Shown here: positions 7,043 through 49,961 of the stretch, in pieces | Layout of the letters: the number at the start of each line of letters is the position of its first letter | How positions within the stretch are numbered: position 1 is the first letter of the stretch | Source of the DNA: an uncultured Thermoplasmatales archaeon | Lineage (GTDB): Archaea > Thermoplasmatota > E2 > DHVEG-1 | Reading direction: 5' to 3' | Length of the DNA: 64,000 bases | Assembly (NCBI GenBank): GCA_964636235.1 | Contig: CAZWQV010000004.1 | Coordinates: 3,257 to 67,256 of the forward strand | Program-made: the position numbers and the translations under genes | Notes under the pieces: model-generated | Databases searched by the model: none | What the model saw: the letters and a program-made list of their open reading frames with translations, nothing else | Told to the model about the DNA's origin: nothing

Positions 7043-7546
7043 TTATAGCTTATAGCCAATATCCCGTAGTAATTTTTTTCTATGGACAATATCATCTTTA
7101 TTTTCTATGCCAACCGGGCTATGTCCATCAATAACCCCAAGAATACCACGCCCGGGTTGATCTTTATTTGGAGCACTTGCAATAATCACACGTGTGGGAT
7201 TTGCTGTTGCACAGAAAATACTGCAGACTTCTGGAACTTGTTTAATATTTCGTAATATGTGGAGTGGAAAACATCCTTCCATAAATATGATGAATGAATG
7301 GCCGGCTCCAATGTTCATTGCATTTTTTTCAGCAAGTTTTTTTAGTTTATCATCGTTTCCAATACTTCTTACTTTTCGGGCAATACTAGCTTCACAGAAT
7401 GCAATTCCAAATTTCGCGTTAGGTACACTATTCATAATAGCTTCATATAAATCTTCAATTGTTTTAACAAAGTGAGATTGACCCAAAATAAAATTCATAT
7501 CCTCAGGTTTCTCAATGTCAATAAGTTCCAATGTCATCTCATTCAT
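7043..7546 (-). CDS. Adenosine-specific kinase-like protein (PF04008-like), function tentative
   Basis: About 167 aa conserved archaeal small protein. The family assignment is made from memory of the family pattern, so it is low confidence. Confidence 0.4.
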   Translation of the reverse strand: MNEMTLELIDIEKPEDMNFILGQSHFVKTIEDLYEAIMNSVPNAKFGIAFCEASIARKVRSIGNDDKLKKLAEKNAMNIGAGHSFIIFMEGCFPLHILRNIKQVPEVCSIFCATANPTRVIIASAPNKDQPGRGILGVIDGHSPVGIENKDDIVHRKKLLRDIGYKL

Positions 7547-7627
7547 AGCATGTTCACCTCTTTATAAAAACCATATTAAAAATGATTATACTATATCCTT
7601 ATTTAAATGTCATGGAAAACATTACAA

Positions 7628-7903
7628 TTAAAAAACTGGTCTTTTGGTTAATACTGATATCATTTTCAAAGCAGTAAAAAATGCAATAATGAGAGCCATT
7701 GAAAGTACAATCAACTCAATATGTGCTTCACCATAACCATTAATATTTGCTATGAACATGAAATTGTTATAAAAATATGCATGTAGAAAACTAAGATATA
7801 AAACAATCGAATTAGCAAGTAAAATAAGTATGCCAAGAATACAAATGCTTAATTTTACATGTTCTTTCGTATTGTCACCAATATAATTGGTAACATTCCT
7901 CAT
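7628..7903 (-). CDS. Hypothetical small membrane protein
   Basis: 91 aa with two predicted TM helices. No recognizable family. Confidence 0.3.
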   Translation of the reverse strand: MRNVTNYIGDNTKEHVKLSICILGILILLANSIVLYLSFLHAYFYNNFMFIANINGYGEAHIELIVLSMALIIAFFTALKMISVLTKRPVF

Positions 7904-7966
7904 TAATTACCGTTCTTGAACAATTATTATCTAAAAAAATAAAAAAGAGAGAAAATGGTGGTTGGT

Positions 7967-8594
7967 TTATTCTTCTTCATGGTCAAAATATAGATATCCC
8001 ATCTTAAAAAGAATAATAAAAGCGATAATTGCTGCTGCGATGATACCTGCAATGATTATAATCCATGGTATTTCACCTACGTTTTCTGTACCAGATGATA
8101 CTCCAATAGCAAATGTTGAAAGTCCGGGAGTTATTGCATCATAGTAGGTATATGTTTCATCCTTACTGGTAGCGGTTGTGGATAATGTTTGCCAGTTATT
8201 ATTATGATATCTTAGAAGAACAATATTTTTTTGATCAATATTATGATTTTCTAACCATTCATTTTCTACTTTTTATGAAAGAGTAAGACTCTTTAAATCT
8301 TCATCCGCGACATTTGTTGATATATCTATGTACATGTATACTGTGTTTGTTGGTTCTGAAATTCCCCCTGGTTTGGTATCATAGTTTTCATAATGATAAT
8401 ATTTGTCATCAACATCCTACGTTGGACTTCCATGTGCATATGCGGTCATTTTTATTGCAGTCGTTCCATCATCTTCTGCACTAACTGAAGGTAAAAAACG
8501 GCAGAAAATATTAAAATTGTTATCATAATCGCTAGAAAGAATGATATCAGCTTCCTTTTAATTTTAGAGATGTATTTGATTGAATTCCCATCAT
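7967..8594 (-). pseudogene. Decayed surface protein gene (signal peptide + PGF-pre-PGF-like domain + C-terminal TM/acidic tail)
   Basis: Minus strand: AGGAGG then ATGATG start. A conceptual translation needs two frameshifts at A- and T-homopolymers, and contains in-frame TAG (8417-8419) and TAA stops. The reconstructed protein has a signal peptide (…AVFLPSVSA|EDD), a …YTYYDAITPGLSTFAIGV motif and a C-terminal TM. Confidence 0.5.
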
Positions 8595-8745
8595 CCTCGC
8601 CTCCTATTACAGATATAAAAATTCTTATATATATCTATCAGTTTTTAAGGCATAAAAAACAATATAGAATTACTTAAATATATTTCGATATTATGGGAAA
8701 TTTTTAATATAATATAGATAATATTAATAAATTAATCCTATAAAT

Positions 8746-10005
8746 TTATTTTTTACATTCAAAATATGATGTTGATCCTCTAGGGGAGACAAGAATAGAT
8801 GCGTTTTTTCCCGTAATACTGTATGCTTTCCTCAATGCATCCTCTGGAGTTTTAGCTGGAATAAAACCAAGTTTATCCTTAACAAAACCATCTTGTAATT
8901 CAGATACGAGGATGACGGTATTTTTTTCAATTGCTTGTCTATGATAAAATGCCTTATGAGCACCTAATTTGAAATTCTTTTCAAGTAATACTTGGATTTC
9001 AGCAGCTGAAGAATGATTTTCAAGCCAGGTTGCATAGAGATCATTTCCTATTCCTTCGGGGCATTCTGCTATAAGGATAACCACGCCCTTTTCTCTTACT
9101 ATTTGAGATGCGGTATAGAGTGCTTTTAATGATTGATATAAATTTATGTCATGGGGGCTTCCATCTGCTGCAGAAATTACAATATCTGGTTTCTGACACA
9201 GATTCATTTTAAACATCTCATCAACAAGGGCAATTCCTTTTTCCATCACAAGTTTTGGATCACCGGCCCATAAACCAACGATATCATGATGTGAATTCAA
9301 TACCGCACTTAATGCAAAATCGCATCCAGCCATATCCATGGCCTCAATCATTTCCTTACTTATTGGATTGGTATCATATATGCCCATGACTGCATCTGAG
9401 TGAAACATCATTGCATGATTTGTTTGAATACTTTCTGCTGAAGAAACGCCAGGTAACACACTTTTCCGTGTTCCTCCATACCCCGCATAATAATGATATT
9501 CAATATCTCCAACAAGAATTTTAATATCTGCTTGGATATATTCCTTCAATACACAAATTTTGTTTCCATATGATGAAGTTCCTAAAGAAAGATATGCTCC
9601 ATTTTTTACATCATTACTGATAACCGCATAATCATTTACAATTTCTTTACCAAGGATTTGAATCATCTTTTCATAATCTGGTGGTGTATGAGTTCCAGTT
9701 GCAATGATAATGGTAATATCAGTTTTGTTGATACCACATTCAATTAATTCATTCAACAAAGGTGGGAGTAACTGTTTTGTTGGTGCTGGTCGAGTATAAT
9801 CATCAACCACAATAACGACTTTCTGACCTTTAGAAACAACTGTTGATAATGGACCAACCCCCAGTGGATTTTTTATAACAGAGGTGATAAATTTATTTAT
9901 ATTTTCTATTGCTGGAGATTCTTTTGGATGTGCAACAATAACACTATCATTATCATTTAAAAAAAGCGGAAGATGCGATTTTCCATAGGGAAGTGCAATT
10001 TCCAT
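8746..10005 (-). CDS. LarA-family protein (lactate racemase-like, nickel-pincer cofactor-dependent racemase/epimerase superfamily)
   Basis: Collinear with LarA: DDYTRPAP, ATGTHTPP, HYYAGYGGTRKSVLPG (Lys for NPN attachment), and the GCDF motif. Confidence 0.65.
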   Translation of the reverse strand: MEIALPYGKSHLPLFLNDNDSVIVAHPKESPAIENINKFITSVIKNPLGVGPLSTVVSKGQKVVIVVDDYTRPAPTKQLLPPLLNELIECGINKTDITIIIATGTHTPPDYEKMIQILGKEIVNDYAVISNDVKNGAYLSLGTSSYGNKICVLKEYIQADIKILVGDIEYHYYAGYGGTRKSVLPGVSSAESIQTNHAMMFHSDAVMGIYDTNPISKEMIEAMDMAGCDFALSAVLNSHHDIVGLWAGDPKLVMEKGIALVDEMFKMNLCQKPDIVISAADGSPHDINLYQSLKALYTASQIVREKGVVILIAECPEGIGNDLYATWLENHSSAAEIQVLLEKNFKLGAHKAFYHRQAIEKNTVILVSELQDGFVKDKLGFIPAKTPEDALRKAYSITGKNASILVSPRGSTSYFECKK

Positions 10006-10032
10006 AATAAAAGAGAATAAAAGAAGGATTAC

Positions 10033-10215
10033 TTAGTGTTTTGCGTAGAATTTGCTCCAACGTACTCTTCGAGGAACTCGATTTAATTTCAGCATGTTTT
10101 TTTGACATTTGCTTGTACAAAAATGAAAAACACTTCCATCTCTTTTACAATATAGTTTTCCAGTACCAGGTTCTATTTCATTTCCACAAAATGAACAAGT
10201 TCTTCTTTCAACCAT
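10033..10215 (-). CDS. rpl24e: 50S ribosomal protein L24e
   Basis: C4 zinc ribbon: CSFCG...C...C, KFYAKH tail. 60 aa. Confidence 0.85.
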   Translation of the reverse strand: MVERRTCSFCGNEIEPGTGKLYCKRDGSVFHFCTSKCQKNMLKLNRVPRRVRWSKFYAKH

Positions 10216-10235
10216 GCATTATTACCTTCTTTATT

Positions 10236-10445
10236 TTATCTTGGACCACCAAGACTTTTAGCTTCACGTTGGGTTTCACTGAGCATCAATATGTCGCCTA
10301 ATTGAACTGGACCCATAACGTTTCTTGTAATTATCTTCCCTTTGTCCATTCCATCGAGAACACGCAGTTTTACTTGTTGGGCTTCGCCAGCCATACCCGT
10401 GCGATGGATGATCTCGACTACTTCACAGGGTGTTCCTTCAACCAT
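10236..10445 (-). CDS. rps28e: 30S ribosomal protein S28e
   Basis: Contains AEVVEIIHRTGMAGEAQQVKLRVLDG, a near-invariant S28e sequence. Confidence 0.85.
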   Translation of the reverse strand: MVEGTPCEVVEIIHRTGMAGEAQQVKLRVLDGMDKGKIITRNVMGPVQLGDILMLSETQREAKSLGGPR

Positions 10446-10454
10446 GGTATATCA

Positions 10455-10823
10455 CTATTTTCCTTTCAATTCAGCTGTTTTTTTAACCAGTGTTTCAAGT
10501 GTGTTTTTATCTTTTCCAGGATTTAGAATTGCGATAGCTGCAGTGCTCACGTGTAAACCTGCGGCAGATCCTAACTCATCTTTACTTGGGACGTAAGCAT
10601 AGGGAATGTTTTTTTCTTCACATAATATTGGCATATGAGCAAGGATTTCCTCTGGTGAAATATCTTCTGCCATGATGACAAGTTTTGCTTGTCCTCGTTC
10701 TACTTGTTTAGTTACTTCATTTGCTCCTTTGCTTATTTTGCCTGTATCTCTAGCTTTTTCGACAAGATCATAGGCTAAATCCTGTACTTCTTTTGGGGTT
10801 TGAAATTTTACATACATTGCCAT
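10455..10823 (-). CDS. rpl7ae: 50S ribosomal protein L7Ae (K-turn binding)
   Basis: Contains [30 protein letters not shown]...[13 protein letters not shown], the L7Ae/L30e signature. Operon with S28e and L24e. Confidence 0.85.
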
Positions 10824-12082: not shown

Positions 12083-12736
12083 CTATTGAAGTCCTGTTTT
12101 GGTTATGGTAAAACCACATGTTTTTCCTTCAGGCTCAGAACGATGTTTAATAATGGTTGCTTTTCTAATGCCAGTTCCAGTTTTTTCTAATTTAATGATA
12201 CTTTTCACTAAATGTTCAACGTCTCGGCTGGTAAAGGGTTTTATATCTCCATTTTTATCGGTATATACTTGCTCTGCAATGATAACATATAAATTATGTT
12301 CACGAGCTGCTTTTTGTAAAAGAGCTGTCTGACGGGAAAATGATCGAAGACTTCCTTCTTTATCCTCTTCGCAAGTCAACCTGTAAAACATATTTAATGT
12401 GTCAACAATAATTAATTGAAGATTTTTTATTTTGAGTGCATTTTGAATCATTGTTTCCTGATCTTCAGTAGATGTTGGTGAGAAAATGAGAATCTTAGAT
12501 AATATTTTTTCTTTTTCATAATCCTGACAGATTTGATCAAGTCGTTTTATTGAAACTCCTTCTGAATCAATGTATGCTACCTTTCTTCCATTATTTGCGC
12601 ATTCTCTTGCAGCTTGCAGACAAATATTAGTTTTTCCTGTTCCAGCTTCTCCAAAAATTTCAGAAATTACCTTTGGTTCAAAACCTCCTCCAAGAAGTTT
12701 GTCTAAAGGATTACATTTTATCGGTAAATAATTCAT
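12083..12736 (-). CDS. radB: DNA repair and recombination protein RadB
   Basis: 217 aa RecA-fold protein with Walker A (GEAGTGKTNICLQ) and KaiC/RadB-like layout. No N-terminal HhH domain, so RadB rather than RadA. Confidence 0.75.
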   Translation of the reverse strand: MNYLPIKCNPLDKLLGGGFEPKVISEIFGEAGTGKTNICLQAARECANNGRKVAYIDSEGVSIKRLDQICQDYEKEKILSKILIFSPTSTEDQETMIQNALKIKNLQLIIVDTLNMFYRLTCEEDKEGSLRSFSRQTALLQKAAREHNLYVIIAEQVYTDKNGDIKPFTSRDVEHLVKSIIKLEKTGTGIRKATIIKHRSEPEGKTCGFTITKTGLQ

Positions 12737-14708: not shown

Positions 14709-16232
14709 ATGACGGTTATATTAAACGGATCTGGACTAACTATTGAAAAACTTGTAAAAATAGCTCGTTTTAAAGAAAAAGTTAAACTTGATGATCAAGC
14801 CATAAAAAGAATAATTAAATGTCGGAAACTAGTTGAAAAAAAGATAGCTGATAAAGAAATAATGTACGGAATCAATACAGGTATAGGAGAATTTTCCGAG
14901 ATTGTATTAAACGATGATCAGATTAAACAATTTCAAAAATATCTTATTTATAACCATGCAGCGGGTATTGGTGATCCAGCACCTATTGAATACATTCGTG
15001 GAGCGATGGCTGCTCGAATAAATGTACATGCACATGGTCAATCAGGAAATCGTATTGAAATCACCAAAACATTAGTAGAAATGTTGAATAAAGATGTCGT
15101 TCCATATGTTTGTCAAAAAGGAAGTGTGGGTGCTTGTGGCGATCTTGCACCTATGTCCCAGATAGCACTTTTACTGCTTGGTGAAGGAAAAGCGTATTAT
15201 GACGGTGAATTACTACCCGGAAAAAAAGCCATGGAGAAGGCGGGCATTATGATTCCCGGCCTTCATGCACGGGATGGTCTTGCAGTAATAAATGGATGTA
15301 ATGTATTAACAGCGATGAGTGCAATTTTTTTATATGATGCAAATCGATTTTTAAAACAGGCTGAAATCGCCGCTGCTATGAGTCTTGAAGCGTTAAAAGC
15401 GAATATGAAGCCATATACCCCAAAACTTCATGAGGCTCGAGGATTTCCAGGGGCTATTCGAAGTGCAAATGCTATCTGTAAATTAATAACAGGTGGAGAT
15501 TTACAGAAAGAAAAGATACAATGTAAGGTGCAGGATGCCTATAGCATGCGTTCTACTCCGCAAGTTATTGGTGCTGCTCATGATGGCATTCGATGGGCAA
15601 AAGAGCAAATAGAAATTGAACTAAATGGCGTAGGTGATAATCCTGTTTTTTTCCCGGAAGAGAAGTTACAATTATCTGGTGCTAATTTCCAAGGAACTCC
15701 AGTTGGTTTACCGATGGATATGGCAGGCACAGCGATTACCATGGTTTGTATATTAAGTGAAAGACGGATGAATCGGTTGAATAATCCAGCCTTAAATGTT
15801 GGATTGCCTGCCTTTTTAACTAAAGGGGCTGGAATGTTTTCAGGTTTAATGCTTAGCCAATATACTGCTGATCATCTTATTGTTGAACAAAAACTTCTCT
15901 CGTCACCTGCATCAATTCAGTCCATTCCGGCTGCTGCAGATCAAGAGGATTTTGTATCAATGGCTATGAATACTGCCATTAAAAATATGCAGATATTGGA
16001 AAATGCTTATGGAATATTAGGAATTGAATTTATGGCAGCAGCTCAAGCATTAGATTTTAGAGAGTATCATTTCGGCAAAGGTGTACATACCGCGAAAGAA
16101 ATTGTCAGGTCCTATGTAGATTTTCTTGATGAGGATCGTCCATTATATCCTGATCATACAAAAATGAGAGAACTTGTAAAATCATGCGAGATCCTAGAAG
16201 CCGTAGAGAAAAAAATCGGCCCATTAGAATGA
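14709..16232 (+). CDS. hutH: Histidine ammonia-lyase (MIO-dependent aromatic amino acid ammonia-lyase family)
   Basis: Collinear with HAL (GSVGAxGDLAP, NGCN, etc.). GGGGAG SD. 507 aa. The MIO triad reads Ala142-Cys143-Gly144. Confidence 0.8.
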   Translation: MTVILNGSGLTIEKLVKIARFKEKVKLDDQAIKRIIKCRKLVEKKIADKEIMYGINTGIGEFSEIVLNDDQIKQFQKYLIYNHAAGIGDPAPIEYIRGAMAARINVHAHGQSGNRIEITKTLVEMLNKDVVPYVCQKGSVGACGDLAPMSQIALLLLGEGKAYYDGELLPGKKAMEKAGIMIPGLHARDGLAVINGCNVLTAMSAIFLYDANRFLKQAEIAAAMSLEALKANMKPYTPKLHEARGFPGAIRSANAICKLITGGDLQKEKIQCKVQDAYSMRSTPQVIGAAHDGIRWAKEQIEIELNGVGDNPVFFPEEKLQLSGANFQGTPVGLPMDMAGTAITMVCILSERRMNRLNNPALNVGLPAFLTKGAGMFSGLMLSQYTADHLIVEQKLLSSPASIQSIPAAADQEDFVSMAMNTAIKNMQILENAYGILGIEFMAAAQALDFREYHFGKGVHTAKEIVRSYVDFLDEDRPLYPDHTKMRELVKSCEILEAVEKKIGPLE

Positions 16233-16240
16233 TACAATGT

Positions 16241-17887
16241 TTAAAGGATGCTTTTAAGAATTTCGATATTCATCTCGATTGCAATAATCGGATGTTCCAG
16301 TTCAAAATTGATGATTGTTTGTGGATGTAATTCACCAAAAAATCCAATTTCTTTCTCATGTACTTTCACTGATGCACAGCGTCCTTTTACAAATGCATTA
16401 TGATCTTTTTCAGTGATAATATATGGTTGGATGCCTAATTCCCTTAGAATGCCTTCAACATATGATTTACATTCTGTGAAATGTGATTTTGCACTTGTTT
16501 TTAAAACACCTAAATGGTATATATTCTTATATGTTTCATTAACTATGATGCCCACTTCGAAAATTTTTTGTGGTAAGGGATGATGTTTATTTTCTGCTAG
16601 TATTTTTAATAGAGAGGGAAGTAATGTGGTTCTGATACAAGAATAATCTTCACTTATAGGATTTTTCAGTTCGACTTTTTTTCCCGATTCTATACCAAGT
16701 TTATGATACTCATCTCTCTCATTTGTGATAGTAAAGGTAGTAACTTCATTGAATCCAAATCCTATCATAATCATTCGTAAATTATCAAAAAGATTCTGGT
16801 CTGGAAGATGTTTTCCAAAGGTAAATACTCTAGGTAGTTTTCTATTGAATTGTTCAAAACCATATCCTATTGCAACATCTTCAACTAAGTCAATTTCGTG
16901 TAGTATATCTGATCGCCAAGCAGGAATGGAAATTGAGAGTGTTTTATCATCTTTAATTTCACAATTATATCCCATTTTTTCAAGGGATTGAATAATTTGA
17001 TCAGAACTAAATTTTGGCCCAAGGATTTTTCGGACATAATCTAAGGTAAGAGTTCTTTTTTGAGGAGATAGGTTTGGTGAAATAATTGTTTCATTTCCAT
17101 CTTTTATAGTTGTTGAATATATTGTGCCGCCACGCTCTGCAAGAGCAGTTGTAACAATATTTAGCGCGACATTAACCGCTTTCACATCCGAGCCGGTAAC
17201 ATCAATGAATAAATCCTTTGTATAAGGAGTTACCTCTGTGAGAATACCATTAATTATCGGTGGAAACGATAGTACATTATTATATGCATCTGTAATTAAT
17301 GGATAAGTGTCGTAATCTTTTAAAAGATGTGCATATGCAATTCCTTTTTCATGTTTTTCTAAGATTTCTTGTAAATCCATTGAATCAACTTTTGCTAATG
17401 GTACAAATTGATGGGATCTTGGATCAACTGCTTTATAAATAAATGGTGATTGCACTGGTTCATAATTGTGAACCCCGATAGCTACTTTTTTTCTATTTCT
17501 TCCGATACCAAAATGAAGCTTTTCTTGAAGATCCATTAAAGATGCGATTAATTCATCGCTCATCGTGACATTTTTCACCATTGCGCATCGAATGACTGGT
17601 CGAACTTTTTTTACTGAAGGATCAACATCAATAATAATATCTGATTGATTTATAGGATATGTCGTTAAACCAGTCATATAGGAAAAAAATGCTCTTGACG
17701 CTCTTACTATCCCTTCAACAGATAGAAGATCTGGTCTGTCTGGAAAAAACTCTATACTAATCGTATTATCTTCAACCTTATCTAAATCAGCACCGATCAT
17801 TGGAAGTTTTTCCAGGAACTTTTCTTTTGATAATGGTTGTTTGAGCAATTGAATAAAATCATTGAAATCAAATGTTACTAATGGCAT
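16241..17887 (-). CDS. pheT: Phenylalanine--tRNA ligase beta subunit, archaeal type
   Basis: N-terminal MPLVTFDFNDF...FFPDRPDLLS, typical of archaeal PheT. About 548 aa. Confidence 0.8.
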   Translation of the reverse strand: MPLVTFDFNDFIQLLKQPLSKEKFLEKLPMIGADLDKVEDNTISIEFFPDRPDLLSVEGIVRASRAFFSYMTGLTTYPINQSDIIIDVDPSVKKVRPVIRCAMVKNVTMSDELIASLMDLQEKLHFGIGRNRKKVAIGVHNYEPVQSPFIYKAVDPRSHQFVPLAKVDSMDLQEILEKHEKGIAYAHLLKDYDTYPLITDAYNNVLSFPPIINGILTEVTPYTKDLFIDVTGSDVKAVNVALNIVTTALAERGGTIYSTTIKDGNETIISPNLSPQKRTLTLDYVRKILGPKFSSDQIIQSLEKMGYNCEIKDDKTLSISIPAWRSDILHEIDLVEDVAIGYGFEQFNRKLPRVFTFGKHLPDQNLFDNLRMIMIGFGFNEVTTFTITNERDEYHKLGIESGKKVELKNPISEDYSCIRTTLLPSLLKILAENKHHPLPQKIFEVGIIVNETYKNIYHLGVLKTSAKSHFTECKSYVEGILRELGIQPYIITEKDHNAFVKGRCASVKVHEKEIGFFGELHPQTIINFELEHPIIAIEMNIEILKSIL

Positions 17888-20702: not shown

Positions 20703-21320
20703 ATGAAGATTTATGCCGCTGCGGATATTCATGGAGCTCAGTTCCGAGTTAATGAAATGATAGATGCCATAACTGCCAATAAACCGGATATTACTGTAAT
20801 TTGTGGTGATATCACCCAGTTTGGCCCGGGGGATATGGCATATTATATTCTTAATCAACTACCAGAACCCATCCTTGTTGTGCCTGGAAATATTGATACC
20901 GAAGATGTAAACCAAGGAATACAACGCAGCAAGGCAATTAATATTCAATTTCAAAGATATGACTTAAAAGGTATTTCGTTTTTAGGTTTGAACGGAGTAT
21001 CGGAACGACAAACAAATGCTTTTTATGATTATGAAGATAATAAAAAATTATTTTCTCATTTGGATGTCCTGGTCACTCATGTTCCCCCATATGGTTTTCA
21101 AGATACTATCTTTCTTGGAAAACATGGGGGAAGTAAAGCATTGCTTACAATTATAAATGAGATCCACCCGAGATTAGTTCTCTGTGGCCATATTCATGAA
21201 AATCCAGGATTCATGAAAAAGAATGATCTTACGGTTATTAATTGCAGTATGGGTAAAAGAGGTAAGGGTGCTATTGTGACCATAGAAAAAGATGATATAT
21301 CTGTTGAGATGATTAGTTAG
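20703..21320 (+). CDS. Metallophosphoesterase (calcineurin-like, YfcE/MJ0936-like)
   Basis: Motifs DIHG, GDITQ, GNID, THVPP, GHIHE. 12 nt after the preceding GT gene, so probably the same operon. Confidence 0.7.
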
Positions 21321-23004
21321 CTTTTTTGGTTTGTTGTTGAATCTTTTTCCAAGTATCTTTTAATGATACTGTTCGATTGATGATGAGATGGGTGGCTGTC
21401 GAGTCAGGGTCAATACAGAAATATCCTTTCCGTTCGAATTGAAATCGGTCAAATGCTTGTAATGATTTGATTGCTGGCTCTACTTTACAATTTTTTAGAA
21501 TTTTTAATGATTCTGGGTTTAAAAATGTTTTAAAGTCTTTTTGTTTATCCGCAGTTGGTTCAGGCACTGTAAATAACCGATCGTATAATCTAATTTCAGC
21601 ATCACAAGCATGGGCAGCTGAAACCCAATGAATGGTTGCTTTGACTTTTCGACCATCCGGTGCATATCCCCCTTTCGTTTCAGGATCAATGGTACAATGA
21701 AGTTCGGTTATTTTATCTTCAGTTTTTTTAACATCATTGCAGGTGAGATAATATGCATAACGTAACCTAATTTCTCTCCCAGGGGCTAGTCGATAGAATT
21801 TTTTAGGGGGATTTTCCATAAAGTCTTCTTGGTCGATGAAAATTTCTTTTGAAAATGGGATATTGCGTGTTCCCGCATTCGTATCTTCTGGATTATTTAT
21901 TGCCTCTAATTCTTCAAAACCAGCCTCTTCATAATTATCAATAATCACTTTTAATGGGTGAAGAACTCCCATAAAGCGAGATGCTGTTTTATTAAGATCT
22001 TCTCTAACACAATGTTCAAGAAAATCAATATCAATAGTACTATTAACTTTTGCAACCCCAATTCGTTTGGAAAAATTTCGTATTGATGATGGGGAATATC
22101 CTCTTCTTTTCATTCCACTTATAGTTGGCATTCGGGGGTCATCCCAACCATTGACATAACTACCATCAACCAATTCTTTTAACATTCTTTTACTCATAAT
22201 AGTAAACGACAGATTCAACCTTGCAAATTCAATTTGTTGCGGATGGTAAACTTCTAATTGATCAAGAAACCAATCGTATAAGGGTCGATGATTTTCAAAT
22301 TCTAAGGTACAGATAGAATGTGTTATTTTCTCAATCGAGTCTTCTAAACCATGAGCCCAATCATACATTGGATAAATACACCATGAATCCTTAGTGTTAT
22401 GATGAGACTCATGAAGAATTCTATAAATGATTGGATCTCTCATATTAATATTAGGATGAGCCATATCGATTTTAGCTCTAAGTACTTTCTCACCATTTTC
22501 AAATTCCCCCTGTTTCATCCGTACAAAAAGATCTAGATTTTCTTCAATTGAACGATTTCTATAGGGGCTGTTTATACCTGGTTGAGTAAGACTTCCCCTT
22601 GTTTTACTTATTTCATCTGGTTGTTGATCATCAACATAGGCTTTACCTTTTTTAATTAAATCAATAGCATAGGTGTACATCTGATTAAAATAATCTGAAG
22701 CAAAATAGAGTCTATCCCCCCAATCAAATCCTAGCCATCTTACGTCATTAATAATTGATTGAACGTATTCATCTGTTTCCTTCACGGGGTTTGTGTCATC
22801 AAACCGAAGATTACAGAAACCATTATAATCTTCTGCAATACCAAAATTCAAACAGATTGATTTTGCATGACCGATATGCAAATAACCATTTGGTTCAGGA
22901 GGAAATCTCGTATGAACTCTCCGATTATATTTATTTGTTTTAATGTCTTCATCAATGATATCACGAATGAAATCTTTTTGTTTTTCTGAATCATCCATAC
23001 TCAA
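21313..23004 (-). CDS. glnS: Glutamine--tRNA ligase (bacterial/eukaryotic-type GlnRS)
   Basis: Long collinear stretches match E. coli GlnRS as I recall it: [57 protein letters not shown], and the C-terminal anticodon-binding barrels. HIGH and MSK class I motifs are present. Confidence 0.85.
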
Positions 23005-23437
23005 TCACCATATAATTTCTCACATTTTTTAAATGGTTTAAATGATAAAGTTGTAGAATCATGGTACAACTTTAATAATTAACATTTCGTAATGAAAAAT
23101 GCAACACATAAGGTTTTTGTTTGAAAAAGAGAATATTTCATCATTATTTAGAAAAAAATTGAAGGGAGGGGAAAAACTAAAAATGAGAATATATAGGGGA
23201 CAAATAAAATTCAACTATTGTTTTTCCCAGTTGCATATCCTTCGACCTTCTTCTCCCTTTATTATATATTTTGTTTCTTCTATTATTTAATATTTCTTGT
23301 TATTTTATAACACGATTATATAAAGGTTTTGCTTATCAATTAAATTGACAATATTTTGTTTAGAGTATTTTCAAAAAGCAAAGTATTTGATTACATCCAA
23401 TCGATAATGAACTATTAATATTTTTTAATAAAAAGAA

Positions 23438-24778
23438 ATGATAAAAAAGAAATTGAGTATCTTAGATATTTTTATTAACTATTGTTACTTATTACTATAT
23501 AAAAAGGGGATAATCGTGAACGGTTTAAATAGAAAGAAAGCTTTTATTATTTTATTATTTACAATTTTTATTATTCCAAGTGTTCCAAGCTATGCCTCTG
23601 ATTCAGCTGATCAATCTTCATTAAGTACACATACTGTACTTGTTGAAGTGGCATCATCTCAGGGATGCTCTGGTTGTAGTAGTTGGAATGCGATAATTAA
23701 TAATGAATTTTTAAATGGCATTTATGATTTTGAATTTGTGGAAATGATTGTATATGATCATTTATGGGATGTATTGAATAATGTAACCTATGATTGGAAT
23801 GAAATGTTTGGAATATCAAGCTACCCCACATCAGTTTTTGATGGTGGATTTGATTTTCTTATAGGTAGTAATCCCACGAATTTACCTGAAGTTTTAGAAA
23901 ACAGTCAGAATAGAACAGTATCGGATATTGATGCGCAAATTCAAGTATTATGGTATCACCCTGCTACATTGAAAGTCAGTATCAACATTACCAACAATGA
24001 ACCTTATACATATGATGGTTCCATCCGTTCTCATATAGCAGAAATAGAATCTCGATATTCTACATCACAAGGCCATTTCTATCATAATGGTTTCCTGGAT
24101 TTTGCGTTTAATAAAAATATCTCTATTCCTCCCTATGGATCATATACTGATACAAAAAGTTGGGACGCAACGTTACATAAAGATGCCCATGGAGATTCAT
24201 TTGGTGATATTGAAAAAGATAATATCAAAGTTTACTTAACAGCTTTTGATAAGAATGGATTATGTGATGAGGTTGTTATCACTCAACCGGTCTACGCTCC
24301 TCAGTATGAAGAAATAAACCAATCTGTACATAATAGAGGATTTCCAATCCGTCATGCTGCTGATGGTGATTGGGGTGCTGCTCAGAATTTTACATCAACA
24401 CAGGATTCGCTAAGTAGTATGCAGATTTATCTTCGTAAATTTGGAACTCCTGAATTCAATTTAAGTATTGAATTACATGAAGATGCGATTACTGGACCAA
24501 TTGTGGAAACCTTTACATTTACGCCAAGTGAAATTCCCAGTTCTTGGAAATGGCTCTCATTAAATATGACCAATGATACAGTTGTGAATGGAAAAAAGTA
24601 TTTTATCACCATTCCACCAGCAACATCTGGAATATCTACCTCATTTGGTTATGAATGGGGTTATGCATTTGGAAACCAATACGACAACGGTGCATTCTGG
24701 TTCACTCGTGACGGAGGAAACTTATGGAGAGATCTTCCGACCATGTATGAATTTACCTTTAAAACTTTTAGATATTAA
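23438..24778 (+). CDS. Secreted hypothetical protein (signal peptide; CxxC pair near the N-terminus)
   Basis: 446 aa ORF. A more likely start is GTG at 23516 (AGGGG SD 6 nt upstream), which gives MNGLNRKKAFIILLFTIFIIPSVPSYA. No family recognised. Confidence 0.45.
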   Translation: MIKKKLSILDIFINYCYLLLYKKGIIVNGLNRKKAFIILLFTIFIIPSVPSYASDSADQSSLSTHTVLVEVASSQGCSGCSSWNAIINNEFLNGIYDFEFVEMIVYDHLWDVLNNVTYDWNEMFGISSYPTSVFDGGFDFLIGSNPTNLPEVLENSQNRTVSDIDAQIQVLWYHPATLKVSINITNNEPYTYDGSIRSHIAEIESRYSTSQGHFYHNGFLDFAFNKNISIPPYGSYTDTKSWDATLHKDAHGDSFGDIEKDNIKVYLTAFDKNGLCDEVVITQPVYAPQYEEINQSVHNRGFPIRHAADGDWGAAQNFTSTQDSLSSMQIYLRKFGTPEFNLSIELHEDAITGPIVETFTFTPSEIPSSWKWLSLNMTNDTVVNGKKYFITIPPATSGISTSFGYEWGYAFGNQYDNGAFWFTRDGGNLWRDLPTMYEFTFKTFRY

Positions 24779-24785
24779 AAAAAAA

Positions 24786-24857
24786 CAGCCCTGACCAGAT
24801 TTGAACTGGTGTCTAGAGATCCAGAGTCTCTGATGCTAACCACTACACCACAGGGCC
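24786..24857 (-). tRNA. tRNA-Gln (anticodon CUG)
   Basis: Manual cloverleaf: acceptor GGCCCTG/CAGGGCT, D-arm with GG, anticodon stem AGAGA/TCTCT, loop CTCTGGA (U33, CUG), T-arm ACCAG-TTCAAAT-CTGGT, discriminator G. No encoded CCA. A T-tract follows. Confidence 0.75.
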
Positions 24858-24878
24858 AATTTTTTATATCTTTTGACA

Positions 24879-26050: not shown

Positions 26051-27697
26051 TTATAACATAGGCATATGTAGATCTGATTTTTTCACTACATCAATAGCTT
26101 CTTTATATCCTGCATCCGCATGTCTAATAACACCTATTCCAGGGTCTGTCTTAAATACTCTTTTTATACGTTCATCTGTTTCTTTCGTTCCATCACAAAC
26201 TACTACCATCCCTGCATGAGTAGACAGGCCAATACCAACTCCTCCACCATTGTGGATTTGGACATTATCAGCGCCTGCTGCACAATTTAATAAGGCATTT
26301 AATAACGGCCAATCAGCAATAGTATCGCTTCCATCCTTCATCCGTTCGGTTTCTCTATAGGGGGATGCAACACTGCCAGTATCTAAATGATCCCTTGTAA
26401 TAGCAATTGGGCCAATTTCACCATGCCTAATCAATTTATTAATTCCAAGCGCAAATTTTTCTCGTTCCTCATATCCAAGCCAACAAACTCGTGCAGGCAG
26501 CCCCTCCCATGGAAGATGTTTTTCGGCCAAATTAATCCAATTTGATAAAATAGTATCCATTGGAAACATATTCATTACTAGTCTATCTGTTTTCAGGATA
26601 TCCTCTGGATTTCCAGTTAATGAAAGCCATCTAAAAGGTCCGCGCCCGACACAAAGCATGGGGCGTACATAAGCGGGAACAAAACCGGGGTAATTAAAAG
26701 CATTTTTAAGTCCTGCTTTTTGTGCTTGGCCTCTTAAATTATTACCATAATCAAATACAATACTTCCCTTTTTCTGAAAATCAATCATTGCTTGACAGTG
26801 GATTTTCATACTTTTCAGTGATTCTTTCTTATATGCTTTTGGATCAGATGTACGTAATGCTATTGCTTTATCAAGACTATTGCCATAATATCCTGCAGGA
26901 ACATAACCGTTTAGTTCGTCATGAGCAGAGGTTTGATCAGTTACAATATCAGGCTGGAATCCTTCCTTAACCAATTGTGGAAGCACATCTGCACAATTTC
27001 CTAACAGTCCAATTGCTATTGCATTTCCACGTTGTTTTTCTTTTTCAGCCATATCAATTGCTTCATGAATATCTGCTATCTTTTTATCACAAAATCCTGC
27101 TTTTATTCTCCTATCTATCCGTTTTTCATCACATTCAACATCGATACAAATACCACCGGCCATTTTCACTGCTAATGGTTGAGCACCTCCCATACCACCC
27201 ATACCACCAGTTAAAACAATTTTTCCTTTCAGGTTCTTATTAAAATGTTTTTTTGCTAGAGCTGAAAATGTCTCATATGTTCCTTGAATTATGCCCTGTG
27301 TTCCAATATAACACCATGAACCTGCAGTCATCTGACCGTACATAGTTAGCCCTAATTTTTCCAGCTCATTAAACTTATCCCAATTACTCCAATGAGGAAC
27401 AATATTTGCATTTGCCATTAGTACTCTTGGCGAATTTTCCCACGTTCTAAAAACACCAACTGGCTTGCCTGATTGAATAATAAGCGTTTCATCATTTTCT
27501 AATGACTGTAATGTTTGAACAATTTTATCATAACATTTCCAATTTCTTGCTGCCTTTCCCGTTCCACCATATATAATTAAATCTTCTGGTAATTCAGCAT
27601 TTTCTAGATTATTTTCAAGCATTCGAAGAATCGCTTCTTGTTTCCAACCTTTACAGCGTAATGTTGTTCCTCTTGCAGCTTTTATTTGTTTCCCCAT
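26051..27697 (-). CDS. hutU: Urocanate hydratase
   Basis: 548 aa. Urocanase N-terminus (RGTTLRCKGWKQEA...) and a GGMGGMGGAQP NAD-binding glycine-rich loop. Confidence 0.8.
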   Translation of the reverse strand: MGKQIKAARGTTLRCKGWKQEAILRMLENNLENAELPEDLIIYGGTGKAARNWKCYDKIVQTLQSLENDETLIIQSGKPVGVFRTWENSPRVLMANANIVPHWSNWDKFNELEKLGLTMYGQMTAGSWCYIGTQGIIQGTYETFSALAKKHFNKNLKGKIVLTGGMGGMGGAQPLAVKMAGGICIDVECDEKRIDRRIKAGFCDKKIADIHEAIDMAEKEKQRGNAIAIGLLGNCADVLPQLVKEGFQPDIVTDQTSAHDELNGYVPAGYYGNSLDKAIALRTSDPKAYKKESLKSMKIHCQAMIDFQKKGSIVFDYGNNLRGQAQKAGLKNAFNYPGFVPAYVRPMLCVGRGPFRWLSLTGNPEDILKTDRLVMNMFPMDTILSNWINLAEKHLPWEGLPARVCWLGYEEREKFALGINKLIRHGEIGPIAITRDHLDTGSVASPYRETERMKDGSDTIADWPLLNALLNCAAGADNVQIHNGGGVGIGLSTHAGMVVVCDGTKETDERIKRVFKTDPGIGVIRHADAGYKEAIDVVKKSDLHMPML

Positions 27698-30808: not shown

Positions 30809-32119
30809 ATGTCTGATGTTCCAATTGTGACAATAAGGGAAATATTACAAGGATCTTTTACAGATAAAGAAGTTATAATCAGAGGATGGATTTATCGAAC
30901 GAGAAGTAGTGGAAATATCGTTTTTACGGTGATAAGGGATGCATCTGGCACGATTCAAGCGACAATGAAACGAGGAAATTTACCTGATGATGCATTTGAA
31001 GACATAAAGAAAGCCTTGGTTGAATCCTCTGTAATTATTAAAGGAAAAGTAGTAGAGGATAATAGAGCTCCTAATGGATTTGAAATCAGGGTTTTTGATT
31101 GTGAGATCGTGCAATTTGCTGATGTGTTTCCCATCGTTGAAGATCAAAGTGCTGAGTTTTTATTAGATCAAAGGCATTTATGGATCCGATCTCAAAAACT
31201 GAATGCAATTTTGAAGATAAGATCAACAGTTACCGGTGCAATTCATGAATTCTTTAGAAACAAAGGATTTTTTGAATTTACTGCACCAGTGTTGCAGCCT
31301 AACCAATGTGAAGGAGGATCCACATTATTTGAAGTTAAATATTATAATCAAAAAACCTATCTTTCACAAAGTTGGCAATTATATGCGGAAGCTGCTATTT
31401 TTTCTCTTGAAAAAATTTACAATATTGGTCCTACCTTTCGAGCTGAGAAATCGAAAACATCCCGTCATTTATCTGAATTCTGGATGGCGGAAATGGAAGC
31501 TGCATGGATAGGGCTTGAAGAATTAATAACCATTGCAAAAGAAGAAATTCATTTTATTATTAAAAAAGTACTTGAAAACAATCAATTTGAATTAAACGTA
31601 TTAAAGCAGGATATTGAAAAATTACAAACACTTTCAATTAAACCAATTCCAACTATTACCTATGATGAGGCTATCGATATTTTAAACGAAAAAGAACACA
31701 TGAATGTGGAATGGGGAAAAGATTTACGTACGATTGAAGAAAATAAATTAATGAATCATTTTAGCACTCCAGTTGTTGTTACAAATTATCCATTAGAGAT
31801 TATGGCTTTTTATAAACCAGTTGATCCAGGAAAACCAAATACTGCATTATGTTTTGACATGATTGCCCCCAAAGGATATGGTGAAATTATTGGAGGCTCC
31901 CAACGAAGTACTGATATTGCATATATGAAACAACGTTTATTAGATCAAGGAGAAAAAATTGAAAATTATGAGTGGTATTTCGATTTACGAAGATATGGAT
32001 CAGTACCACATGCAGGATATGGTCTAGGTGTGGAACGATTGCTTGCTTGGATCTGCAATCTTGATAATATTAAAGATGCCATTCCTTTTCCACGTACACT
32101 AACTCGTTTTGCTCCATAG
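30809..32119 (+). CDS. asnS: Asparagine--tRNA ligase
   Basis: N-terminal OB fold; class II motifs; FRAEKSKTSRHLSEFWMAEME (AsnRS-type motif 2); C-terminal GYGLGVERL. Confidence 0.75.
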   Translation: MSDVPIVTIREILQGSFTDKEVIIRGWIYRTRSSGNIVFTVIRDASGTIQATMKRGNLPDDAFEDIKKALVESSVIIKGKVVEDNRAPNGFEIRVFDCEIVQFADVFPIVEDQSAEFLLDQRHLWIRSQKLNAILKIRSTVTGAIHEFFRNKGFFEFTAPVLQPNQCEGGSTLFEVKYYNQKTYLSQSWQLYAEAAIFSLEKIYNIGPTFRAEKSKTSRHLSEFWMAEMEAAWIGLEELITIAKEEIHFIIKKVLENNQFELNVLKQDIEKLQTLSIKPIPTITYDEAIDILNEKEHMNVEWGKDLRTIEENKLMNHFSTPVVVTNYPLEIMAFYKPVDPGKPNTALCFDMIAPKGYGEIIGGSQRSTDIAYMKQRLLDQGEKIENYEWYFDLRRYGSVPHAGYGLGVERLLAWICNLDNIKDAIPFPRTLTRFAP

Positions 32120-46950: not shown

Positions 46951-48141
46951 TTGATGATCTTTATGAATAAAAGGTATGTTATTAAAGAAATTAATTCATG
47001 GGGGGAATTCATAAAATTAGAATCCGCATGGGACCATCTCATTCAATTACAATCAAAACATGCATTATTTTTGTCTTTTCCGATAATGAAACATTTTTTT
47101 AAAGTAATATATGATTCATATGAAGATATAAAAATTAAAATTATTCTCATAAATAATGATAAAAATGAGCTGAAAGGAATTATCCCATTTACAATTGAAA
47201 AAAAACGATTTGCACGAATCATTCCTTTCTATAAATTAGGTATTAAGGATAATATTATCGGTCTGTTTACTTTCCTTTTAGACCCAGCTGAGAATATTTC
47301 ACAAATGATGGATGAATTGTTTAGATATCTACGAACACACAAAAGCAAATGGGATATTCTTTCTTTACATCATGTTCCTTCTGATATGAATGGTATTGAT
47401 GATTTTTTATCTCTTGGTTCAAAAAATTTTAACATTAAAATAAATGAAACAAAAACACTTGTTGTTGCTAAACCTGTAGAATTTGCTGACATTCTTTCTC
47501 AAATGAATGGCAAAAAAAGAAGGGAAATGAAACGCAAGATACGGCGACTTTCTGAGGATGGTGACCTGGAATTGGTTTCCATAAATGATCATACCAAGAT
47601 AGAACAATATCTTCCAACTTTTTTTGATATTGAAAATAACAATTGGAAGGGTAAAATGGGCACGTCTATTCTGAAATCACCCTATTTACCATTTTTTGAA
47701 CAAATGGCTTTGTATCTCTCAGAAAGAAAAAAGTTTCATTTATATCTATTAAAGATTAAAAAAGTGTTCGTCTCAGGAATTTATGCTGTTATCGATAATG
47801 ATACATTATATTTTGTAAAGATTGGTTATGATGAAAATTATGCAAAATATTCTCCCTCGCTGGTATTATTTTATTTAGTATTTGAACAATTAACGAAACA
47901 ATACCAGATTCAATATATTGATTTTTTTGGCCCTATTGATTCCTATCAAACTATATTTGGTAAAACCACCAGAACATCCTATGACCTTACAATATTTAAT
48001 AGAAAACTTGTACCATCTTTTTATCATTTCACTTTAATGTTATTTAATAAAATACAGAATTATTCATTTGGGAAAAGGGTTATTAATACACTTTTAAAAA
48101 TTCCACTTCTTAAAGAAAAAATAAATAATATATATGAATAA
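46951..48141 (+). CDS. FemAB/CelD-like GNAT (Acetyltransf_6 family) protein
   Basis: C-terminal pattern ...LYFVKIGYDENYAKYSPSLVLFYLVFEQLTKQYQIQYIDFFGP, typical of BioF2-like/FemX-like GNATs. Confidence 0.45.
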   Translation: MMIFMNKRYVIKEINSWGEFIKLESAWDHLIQLQSKHALFLSFPIMKHFFKVIYDSYEDIKIKIILINNDKNELKGIIPFTIEKKRFARIIPFYKLGIKDNIIGLFTFLLDPAENISQMMDELFRYLRTHKSKWDILSLHHVPSDMNGIDDFLSLGSKNFNIKINETKTLVVAKPVEFADILSQMNGKKRREMKRKIRRLSEDGDLELVSINDHTKIEQYLPTFFDIENNNWKGKMGTSILKSPYLPFFEQMALYLSERKKFHLYLLKIKKVFVSGIYAVIDNDTLYFVKIGYDENYAKYSPSLVLFYLVFEQLTKQYQIQYIDFFGPIDSYQTIFGKTTRTSYDLTIFNRKLVPSFYHFTLMLFNKIQNYSFGKRVINTLLKIPLLKEKINNIYE

Positions 48142-48935: not shown

Positions 48936-49961
48936 TTGACGAATCTTTCTGTTTCTATCCTTGAATCGATTCATGATGCTGATAAAAATCAATGGAATAA
49001 TCTTATCAATCAATCAAATGTAGGTTCAATATTTCAAAGATACGAATGGTTAAACGTTTTGGAGAAAGGATTACAATTAAAACCAAAACATATCTTGATA
49101 TCGAAAGATAATAATCCATTAGGTATTTTCCCCCATTTTATTATCAATGAACAAAAAGAACCATTTCAAAAATTATGTTCTGTTTCCCCCGGATTTGGAG
49201 GTCCAGTTATTGGAAAAGGCGAGGATGCGATTCTACCTTTAATGTTCCAACAAATCCCTAAAATATGTAAAGGTAAAATAGCACTTCACACCATGATTTT
49301 AAACAATTTGAATTATGTAAAATATGGTAAATTTCTTTTCAAATCTGGTTATCAGATGTCGCTTGATGGCCTTCGTTTTTATATAAATCTAAAAAATTCT
49401 TATGATGAACTTCTTAGCAATATGGATCATCATAAAAGAAAGGAGTTTAAAAAAATAAAGAAAACATTATATTCTGTAATTGAGCAAAAAAATAGTATAG
49501 ATTTTATTTCCAATTTCTATAAGGATTATACTGATTCATTAGAAAAAAATAATGTCTCTTCTTATCCATTTATCTTCTTTGAAACACTGTTAAAAGAAAT
49601 GAAAGATAATGTAAAAATATTTACTGCAATTGTCGATGATGTTGCCATTGGATCTGTTCTATGTATTCTTGATAATGAAAAAAATGTGATTCATGGATTT
49701 TTTTCAGCGATTCCTAGTAAATATTTGCATTTAAAACCATGGATTATGCTTCATGATTTTATTGTCCAATGGGGAAAAGATAAATCATTTCAATTCTATG
49801 ATCTCGGTGAAACACCTGCAGATTTTCTTGATTCAATATTCAAATATAAACAGGGGTTTGGCGGTTCCATCCATCCAATAATGTTGTGGGAAAAAAATTA
49901 CTCATTTATAAGATGGAATATATTTAAATCAGGTAGATATATATATCGTAAGTTATCTTGA
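48936..49961 (+). CDS. FemAB/CelD-like GNAT (Acetyltransf_6 family) protein; TTG start
   Basis: TTG at 48936 preceded by a GGGGGA SD. N-terminus SILESIHDADKNQWNNL...IFQRYEWLNV, typical of this family. Confidence 0.45.
   Translation: MTNLSVSILESIHDADKNQWNNLINQSNVGSIFQRYEWLNVLEKGLQLKPKHILISKDNNPLGIFPHFIINEQKEPFQKLCSVSPGFGGPVIGKGEDAILPLMFQQIPKICKGKIALHTMILNNLNYVKYGKFLFKSGYQMSLDGLRFYINLKNSYDELLSNMDHHKRKEFKKIKKTLYSVIEQKNSIDFISNFYKDYTDSLEKNNVSSYPFIFFETLLKEMKDNVKIFTAIVDDVAIGSVLCILDNEKNVIHGFFSAIPSKYLHLKPWIMLHDFIVQWGKDKSFQFYDLGETPADFLDSIFKYKQGFGGSIHPIMLWEKNYSFIRWNIFKSGRYIYRKLS

Follow-up and report, generated by a model that had tools for sequence, protein, structure and literature searches.

The question raised by this locus is how a gene for glutaminyl-tRNA synthetase (GlnRS) that looks functional comes to stand in an archaeon. 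The window, by which we mean the whole 64-kb stretch of contig CAZWQV010000004.1 analysed here, comes from an uncultured Thermoplasmatales archaeon of sediment and contains a bacterial-type glnS gene together with a tRNA-Gln(CUG) gene. "Almost all archaea" are described as using the indirect route to Gln-tRNA-Gln (PMC8762117), a survey of > 2500 prokaryotic genomes recorded no GlnRS in archaea (PMC5388404), and a 2022 review states that GlnRS is absent in all archaeal species (PMC9499178). In that review the proposal of Tumbula et al. (2000) is also restated, according to which the unusual tRNA-Gln of archaea, with A73 and A1:U72, blocked transfer of GlnRS into this domain. GlnRS genes in Heimdallarchaeia (Hodarchaeales, Kariarchaeaceae) have been mentioned in passing (bioRxiv 10.1101/2024.07.04.601786), and literature searches found no description of a Thermoplasmatota GlnRS or of an archaeal G73 tRNA-Gln. 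In the lineage described here, an archaeal host encodes a GlnRS whose functional residues are conserved and whose gene is compositionally assimilated, and the gene belongs to a same-strand cassette with tRNA-Gln genes that have a nearly fixed G73 and archaeal bodies. We consider it very likely that this system goes back to an old transfer of glnS from bacteria to archaea, made workable by retuning of the native tRNA-Gln genes of the host.

The first-pass annotation of the window had described a 563-aa open reading frame (ORF) as collinear with Escherichia coli GlnRS over its full length, and the description holds. Chains of E. coli GlnRS are its best structure matches (712 bits, query 8-555 on chain 6-551), BLASTP identity to the E. 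coli enzyme is 57%, and Pfam recognises the class I Glu/Gln catalytic domain and both C-terminal anticodon-binding barrels (PF03950, PF20974). The NCBIfam glnS model TIGR00440 scores 736.9 bits (cut-off 425.8). Human GlnRS structures reach 449 bits, and the eukaryote-type N-terminal extension is absent, the structure alignment beginning at residue 8 of 563. The highest NCBIfam score, 850 bits, belongs to the model of the Deinococcus-type GlnRS/YqeY fusion (NF011291), but the match covers model positions 10-564 of 769 and the archaeal protein ends there, without the YqeY tail. The maximal ORF starts with TTG; since the relatives P0001 and P0002 are annotated with 561 aa, translation probably begins at the ATG at 22998, which gives the same length. 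The window enzyme is an ordinary member of the bacterial-type GlnRS family, and it is the host domain and the tRNA arrangement that are unusual.

A protein search with the window GlnRS returned at least 8000 matches. The best 120 are all 73-100% identical to it, every named one among them comes from a Thermoplasmatota metagenome-assembled genome (MAG), and relatives at 73-83% identity number in the hundreds. The NCBI annotation pipeline (PGAP) already names proteins of this archaeal clade as glutamine--tRNA ligase. Six of them (P0052, P0062, P0072, P0073, P0080, P0100) carry the NCBI name 'glutamine--tRNA ligase/YqeY domain fusion protein' despite a length of ~560 aa and no YqeY tail, and for archaeal-clade proteins this name is misleading.

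Residue conservation was read in an alignment that includes 122 archaeal-clade, 80 bacterial and 43 N-terminally extended, eukaryote-like sequences, and is given in E. coli numbering. R30, H40-H43, D66, Y211, C229, Q255 and M268-K270 are identical in 122/122 archaeal-clade sequences, and so are the anticodon-contact residues R341, R402, R410, R412, Q517 and R520; in the window protein the invariant HIGH and MSK motifs stand at residues 43-46 and 270-272. We take Arg30 and Tyr211, and also Cys229 and Gln255, to be the glutamine-selecting active-site residues of E. coli GlnRS. The acceptor-end loop 133-137 reads RGTLT in most archaeal-clade and bacterial sequences and RGSLT in the window, and it is gapped in 34-36 of the 43 N-terminally extended sequences. 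Leu136 of this loop, cited as critical for GlnRS specificity (PMC9976931), is present in the window protein and in 103 of the 122 archaeal-clade sequences. Judged from these residues, the window GlnRS looks functional and of bacterial kind, and its predicted activity would be the formation of Gln-tRNA-Gln.

Position 235 is Asn in 121/122 archaeal-clade sequences and Asp in 45/80 bacteria. In the complex of the E. coli enzyme Asp235 contacts G3-C70, and the D235N mutant mischarges. A reading of the change from Asp235 to Asn as an archaeal adaptation to C3-G70 was considered and dropped: the nearest bacterial relatives (L002, L003, L008, L012) also have Asn235, sometimes with G3-C70 tRNAs. Since these relatives already carry it, inheritance of Asn235 is more probable than its evolution within archaea.

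The tRNA-Gln(CUG) of the window shares its strand with glnS and is separated from the start of that gene by 1781 nt, near the GlnRS gene as first reported; it is the sole tRNA detected by ARAGORN and Rfam in the 64 kb; no UUG copy was found there. A manual fold had given it G73, a weak G1·U72 pair and G10, and all three recur in the Infernal alignment, which reads G1·U72, G2-C71, C3-G70, G73, G10·U25 and G12-C23, and shows neither A73 nor G1-C72. Canonical archaeal tRNA-Gln has A73, A1:U72 and C12:G23 (PMC9499178), and the window tRNA departs from this set at all three, with G73, G1·U72 and G12-C23. The identity set of E. coli GlnRS comprises the pairs 1-72 and 3-70, the discriminator, the pair 10-25 and the anticodon (PMC9976931). 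The earlier claim of E. coli-like identity elements stands for G73, the weak 1-72 pair and G10, and the likeness extends to G2-C71 and the CUG anticodon; it fails at pair 3-70, which is C-G and not G-C, and for the tRNA body, which is archaeal.

The bounds given by ARAGORN (24785-24858) include one spurious base at each end, with the preceding U taken as position 1, and the same occurs in nearly all clade tRNA-Gln. This register, with a discriminator U and a wrong first pair, was rejected; the Infernal register is taken as correct because the relatives then show seven standard acceptor pairs. Directly after G73 runs a stretch of nine T, which by its position is likely to be the archaeal transcription stop of the tRNA gene.

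Between tRNA and glnS stands a 446-aa ORF of unknown family, which is present in the syntenic locus L001 and absent from the syntenic locus L086, where the tRNA lies 384 nt upstream of glnS. The spacer itself is polymorphic: 1781 nt in the window (23005-24785), 384 nt in L086 (9618-10000) and ~5 kb in L001 (5024-10000). In L001, a 99% identical strain, it contains in addition a DDE_Tnp_1 transposase and two small ORFs. This variation points to recent insertions into an ancestrally tight cassette, and the cassette of the window is a disrupted one, in which the upstream tRNA has been displaced from glnS by an inserted gene.

The arrangement from which the window departs is seen across the clade. 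A metagenome scan with a clade-specific 48-residue fragment alignment added 33 archaeal-clade loci (37 bacterial and 10 ambiguous loci were also returned), and together with loci fetched by exact protein look-up these make a census of 40 archaeal-clade loci. In 37 of the 40 we found tRNA-Gln genes, 56 in total, and 56/56 lie on the glnS strand. The G73 CUG copies stand upstream of glnS in 28/28 cases with a median gap of 50 nt, and the G73 UUG copies downstream in 20/23 with a median gap of 73 nt. Contigs without one of the two tRNAs are often truncated, and for this reason tRNA-Gln(CUG)-glnS-tRNA-Gln(UUG) appears to be the ancestral arrangement.

The discriminator is G73 in 51 of the 56 genes (40/45 unique sequences) and G10 is present in 53. 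Pair 1-72 is A-U in 41 genes, G·U in 15 and G-C in none; pair 2-71 is G-C and pair 3-70 C-G throughout (56/56 for both), and 55/56 lack an encoded CCA. G1·U72 characterises the window and its sublineage, and most other clade members have A1-U72. Changes from A1 to G1 are spread over at least 7 separate GlnRS subclusters, which fits selection for a weak first pair without need of A1 itself. Moreover, since GatDE reportedly recognises A1:U72 and the D-loop of archaeal tRNA-Gln (PMC9499178), G1·U72 suggests a release from the GatDE constraint on A1:U72.

Phylogenetic analysis places the enzyme among bacterial sequences. In a neighbour-joining tree of 227 sequences (540 columns, 100 bootstraps), archaeal-clade GlnRS is monophyletic with a bootstrap of 100 and lies among bacterial GlnRS. 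Mean corrected distances from the archaeal clade are 0.46 to bacteria, 0.63 to E. coli and 0.94 to N-terminally extended eukaryote-like sequences, which are distant outgroups drawn from a 50%-identity representative search; the window GlnRS groups with bacterial and not with eukaryotic sequences. A bootstrap of 80 supports the split between the prokaryote-type set and most of the N-terminally extended sequences, and the spread within bacteria, 0.44, is about equal to the archaeal-bacterial mean. In a second neighbour-joining tree, with the metagenome loci added, the archaeal clade has a bootstrap of 68, or 88 when the ambiguous short contig L129 is included. Its nearest group there, with a bootstrap of 34, consists of Pirellulales, Anaerohalosphaeraceae, planctomycete MAGs and 31 metagenome sequences. 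Related metagenome sequences reach ~79% identity to other archaeal-clade members. In a scan of species-representative genomes the matches listed were all from bacterial loci, with 59-68% identity to the window GlnRS, in Pirellulales, Anaerohalosphaeraceae, Nitrospiraceae, Chloroflexota, Bacteroidota, Acidobacteriota and others.

In one member of the nearest group, L126, the genes around glnS encode a bacterial AlaRS (934 bits), a bacterial GluRS (482 bits) and sulfatases. Its bacterial-type GluRS lies directly upstream of glnS on the opposite strand (the two genes at 7178-8836 and 9038-10777).

Within the archaeal clade, GlnRS and PheT identities on the same contigs or MAGs run together (83 vs 79%, 81 vs 73% and 76 vs 70%), and such tracking fits vertical descent after one old acquisition. 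The best explanation is therefore an old and lineage-wide transfer of glnS. The horizontal acquisition first proposed for this genome is retained in so far as it best explains a bacterial-type GlnRS, and it has to be given up as an event private to the window genome: the archaeal clade is large and monophyletic, and its divergence tracks that of PheT. The transfer probably ran from bacteria to archaea, because the archaeal clade has a restricted distribution and lies within a far more diverse bacterial radiation; the distance patterns agree with this direction.

In accordance with these data, the following course of events may be proposed. An ancestor of a Thermoplasmatota lineage (Marine Benthic Group D / Thermoprofundales-like) would have acquired a bacterial glnS, which would have become fixed beside the host's own tRNA-Gln genes. 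The discriminator of these tRNAs would have changed from A73 to G73, with retention of G10 and of a weak first pair, either A1-U72 or, in the window, G1·U72. On the model of E. coli GlnRS, the pair of C-terminal beta-barrels would read C34, U35 and G36, the Leu136 loop would open the weak 1-72 pair, and G73 would steady the folded-back 3' end in the active site; Asn235 may relax the reading of pair 3-70, which is C-G in the clade tRNAs. Glutamine would then be ligated directly, without a Glu-tRNA-Gln intermediate. According to this scheme, the change from A73 to G73 would be the key step that lets a bacterial GlnRS work on archaeal tRNA-Gln. The charging reaction, the role of each nucleotide, and the donor and direction of the transfer are predictions drawn from sequence comparison.

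Several points weigh against this reading. All genomes concerned are uncultured and metagenomic, and the system is known from sequence alone. The 56 tRNAs belong to homologous cassettes, and their counts are not counts of independent events. Both trees were built by neighbour joining and have weak backbone support; with a sister-group bootstrap of 34, donor and direction rest on distance patterns and bacterial diversity. Two features of the tRNAs do not follow the E. coli pattern: position 37 is G and not A in archaeal-clade tRNA-Gln (some bacterial neighbours share G37), and pair 3-70 is C-G and not the E. coli G-C. In addition, at L101, a locus that branches deeply, the tRNA-Gln paired with glnS has A73. 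Finally, one Thermoprofundales MAG expresses gatE (PMC6461988 supplement file 6). Because of this MAG of the order and of five A73 tRNA-Gln beside glnS, GlnRS may operate alongside the indirect route and not in its place.

The coexistence may be put in the form of a dual system, in which G73/G10 tRNAs serve GlnRS and A73 tRNAs with a mismatched U10·U25 D-stem serve ND-GluRS and GatDE. The five A73 copies beside glnS occur one each in L083, L088, L095, L110 and L101, and all have A1-U72; those in the first four loci are additional to the G73 genes. In L083 and L095, the Infernal alignment shows a longer D-loop with U10·U25 and U13·U22 mismatches, and the A73 class of these two loci differs from the G73 class at 73 and 10, both important to E. 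coli GlnRS. The A73 copies beside glnS may thus be substrates of a retained GatDE route, and the MAG that expresses gatE speaks for the same idea. On the other hand, no A73 copy lies within 10 kb of glnS in the window sublineage (the window, L001, L086, L118), and neither gatD nor gatE was seen among the window ORFs scanned or among the Pfam-called genes of six fetched archaeal loci. A hidden Markov model built from YqeY tails matched, over 3337 ORFs of all loci, only a bacterial GatB-like ORF (L013). Moreover, the pairing of gatDE with glnS in one genome is put together from separate sources: the supplement of the Thermoprofundales paper (PMC6461988) lists a single expressed gatE and no glnS entry. 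We regard two coexisting routes as possible but doubtful; they would refine an old transfer with retuned native tRNAs rather than exclude it. As a tentative extension, two segregated Gln-charging routes in one cell would represent a living stage midway in the replacement of one pathway by another, and an orthogonal pair of natural origin split mainly by the discriminator. If this is true, the window sublineage, having G1·U72 and lacking an A73 copy in the vicinity, would have moved further towards loss of the indirect route.

The tRNAs could also have come from bacteria together with the enzyme, as a ready-made cassette with bacterial G73 tRNAs. Bacterial tRNA-Gln(CUG) often stands ~60-1000 nt from glnS (L010, L011, L017, L036, L039, L042, L048, L061, L075), and the tRNAs beside bacterial glnS carry mostly G73, and G10; in several of those loci, though, the tRNA is on the opposite strand. 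The tRNA bodies argue the other way. Bacterial tRNA-Gln beside related glnS has the acceptor stem UGGGGGU/ACCCCCA, with U1-A72, G2-C71 and G3-C70, whereas the G73 tRNAs of the archaeal clade have AGCCCCG/CGGGGCU (A1-U72, C3-G70), the stem also common to the five A73 copies. Identity of the G73 tRNAs is 74-78% with the A73 archaeal copies but 56-61% with bacterial tRNA-Gln, and they are no nearer to bacteria than the A73 copies, which are equally distant; the near-universal lack of an encoded CCA likewise speaks against import. A joint bacterial cassette is hence improbable. Because the tRNA body is archaeal and pair 3-70 is C-G, unlike the bacterial G-C, the G73 tRNAs appear to be retuned native archaeal tRNA-Gln and not bacterial imports.

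Enzyme and tRNA also vary together among bacteria. Bacteroidota glnS with Pro136 and Val/Ile235 are paired with tRNA-Gln that has A73 and lacks G3:C70 (L024, L042, L048, L073). Bacterial Leu136 enzymes are paired with tRNA-Gln that has G73 and G3, as G3-C70 or G3·U70 (L010, L011, L017, L039, L061). This covariation within bacteria is a parallel to the archaeal case.

Less probable still is a GlnRS-like paralogue that serves some other function, such as a tRNA-modifying GluQRS-like enzyme or a glutamyl-tRNA synthetase. Class Ib enzymes do have such paralogues, and GluQRS models match the window protein, but these matches are partial and weak (35-60 bits) and below their cut-offs. The archaeal glutamyl model gltX_arch reaches 340.9 bits, under its cut-off of 401.75, and gltX_bact 69.5 bits, when the glnS score lies far over its own. 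The full GlnRS architecture with both anticodon barrels, the invariant R30 and Y211 and the tight linkage to both tRNA-Gln isoacceptors also stand against a paralogue.

The archaeal nature of the host, asserted from the flanking genes in the first-pass annotation, was borne out. The PheRS beta subunit of the window scores 599.6 bits on pheT_arch against 185.8 on pheT_bact, RadB is above its threshold, L7Ae is found by Pfam among the flanking genes, and AsnRS (498 bits) is counted with these archaeal flanks; the Sm-type gene was seen as LSM in the syntenic locus L001. The nearest named relatives of the window PheT are Thermoplasmatales archaeon ex4572_165 (70%) and SG8-52-1/-4 and Thermoplasmata archaeon M9B1D (64-65%). 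The study of Thermoprofundales, Marine Benthic Group D (PMC6461988), gives its MAGs names with an M prefix, and we take the host to belong to this order on the basis of related MAG names, not of phylogeny.

Checks for chimerism, by composition and by comparison of assemblies, revealed no break. GC content is flat across the glnS region. The gene has a GC of 0.343 and a third-position GC (GC3) of 0.230, against window means of 0.321 ± 0.028 and 0.212 ± 0.023 (z-scores 0.79 and 0.82), and in codon usage it ranks 6th of 38 window genes for closeness to their mean; glnS is compositionally assimilated to the host genome. Exact look-up of the window protein with either start gave no identical entry. 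Its 99% identical relative P0002 sits on the syntenic contig L001 (82.7 kb, JGI), and the junctions of the window recur there, in L086 (83% identical GlnRS, gene order kept on both sides) and in L118. Furthermore, three large single contigs (1.82, 4.23 and 5.16 Mb), whose labels read Thermoplasmata or Thermoplasmatales archaeon, carry a clade glnS with archaeal neighbours that include class I LysRS, aIF-2B, PurP and an archaeal phosphopantothenate synthetase. An artefact of binning or assembly, in which a piece of bacterial DNA had become attached to an archaeal sequence, has next to no probability as the origin of glnS: the nearest non-archaeal relatives of the enzyme are bacterial, up to ~68% identical to the window protein, and all sources are metagenomic, but a chimera is excluded because independent assemblies and these three megabase-scale archaeal contigs carry the same gene, as do hundreds of clade members.

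Comparison with known systems defines what is shared and what is particular. The E. coli GlnRS:tRNA-Gln complex (PDB 1GTR/1QTQ family) is matched in the collinear enzyme, in HIGH/MSK, R30, Y211, the Leu136 loop and positions 341/402/410/517/520, and on the tRNA side in the discriminator, weak first pair, second pair, G10 and anticodon of the window tRNA. Unlike E. coli tRNA-Gln, with U1, G3-C70 and A37/U38, clade tRNAs have A1 or G1, C3-G70 and G37/A38, no encoded CCA and an archaeal body; unlike the E. coli system, with Asp235, the host is archaeal, residue 235 is Asn and both tRNA-Gln isoacceptors flank glnS on its strand. Planctomycetota-type GlnRS (L002 Pirellulales, L003 Anaerohalosphaeraceae, L008/L012 planctomycete MAGs) have 64-67% identity with the window enzyme and likewise carry Asn235, but their context is bacterial (L126) and no tRNA-Gln cassette was seen there. 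With archaeal ND-GluRS and GatDE the system shares the end product Gln-tRNA-Gln and tRNAs of archaeal stock, most with A1-U72; it differs in its predicted direct route, in G73 and, in the window, in G1, which removes the A1:U72 pair that GatDE reportedly reads. Eukaryotic cytosolic GlnRS has the same catalytic core and anticodon barrels, but differs by an N-terminal extension of ~200-300 residues, the lack of the 133-137 loop and the large distance given above, and eukaryotic tRNA-Gln has U73 and G1:C72 (PMC9499178). In the haloarchaeon HMET1, paired PylRS/tRNA-Pyl systems are kept apart largely by G73 versus A73 (PMC9499178). The G73 and A73 classes of tRNA-Gln would follow the same discriminator logic with another amino acid and another enzyme family; the split is demonstrated in HMET1 and hypothesised here.

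Table 1. Positions of the glnS system and host markers in the window, and of A73 tRNA-Gln genes beside glnS in related loci
Feature	Locus	Position	Strand	Evidence or remark
RadB, archaea-specific RecA-family paralogue (host marker)	Window	12083..12736	(-)	TIGR02237 211.4 bits, cut-off 172.4
Archaeal PheRS beta subunit (host marker)	Window	16241..17887	(-)	TIGR00471 pheT_arch 599.6 bits
glnS, bacterial-type GlnRS	Window	21313..23004	(-)	NCBIfam, Pfam and E. coli GlnRS structure matches
446-aa ORF between tRNA and glnS	Window	23438..24778	(+)	No Pfam match
Run of nine T directly after G73	Window	24777..24785	(-)	Read from sequence
tRNA-Gln(CUG), 72 nt, no encoded CCA	Window	24786..24857	(-)	Rfam RF00005 60.8 bits; ARAGORN anticodon CTG
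AsnRS	Window	30809..32119	(+)	NCBIfam NF003037 498 bits (cut-off 414); TIGR00457 442.6 bits
A73 tRNA-Gln	L083	11872-11945
A73 tRNA-Gln	L088	11779-11854
A73 tRNA-Gln	L095	3524-3596
A73 tRNA-Gln (UUG)	L110	65 nt downstream of glnS
A73 tRNA-Gln (CUG)	L101	Upstream of glnS

Other genes of the window deserve mention. AsnRS, which provides the direct route to Asn-tRNA, is present, as had been noted (Table 1), and gives context to the earlier suggestion that both amides may be charged by direct pathways. Histidine-degradation genes stand around glnS, with a Lyase_aromatic gene of histidine ammonia-lyase type and urocanase at 14709-16232 and 26051-27697, and FTCD lies near glnS in relatives (L083 2802-4317, L088 2965-4480). 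These genes fit the protein- and amino-acid-degrading lifestyle proposed for the host group. Two of the relatives labelled Thermoplasmata archaeon, L083 (CP070751.1, 5.16 Mb) and L087 (CP070672.1, 4.23 Mb), are large for the phylum.

From ~36000 to 58000, the GC content of the window is 0.27-0.30, against 0.32-0.36 elsewhere, and the region is dense in surface-glycan genes, including an epimerase, several family 1/2 glycosyltransferases, a polysaccharide deacetylase, a flippase, a radical SAM protein and a phosphodiesterase, and probably represents a variable island of cell-surface genes. Two Acetyltransf_6 proteins are encoded within it (46951-48141 and 48936-49961), one of them with weak FemAB/FemAB-like Pfam matches. 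Enzymes of the FemAB family use aminoacyl-tRNA as amino-acid donor in bacterial cell-wall synthesis.

What we rate as new here is a known enzyme family in a new domain, with a co-adapted tRNA set organised as a cassette. The lineage that carries this cassette offers a natural case in which the proposed tRNA-Gln barrier to GlnRS was crossed, together with a plausible route for the crossing, and the barrier hypothesis becomes directly testable with a few tRNA variants. The glnS cassette documents the co-evolution of a synthetase and its tRNA after transfer between domains, and archaeal GlnRS/tRNA-Gln could supply synthetase-tRNA pairs for engineering of the genetic code.

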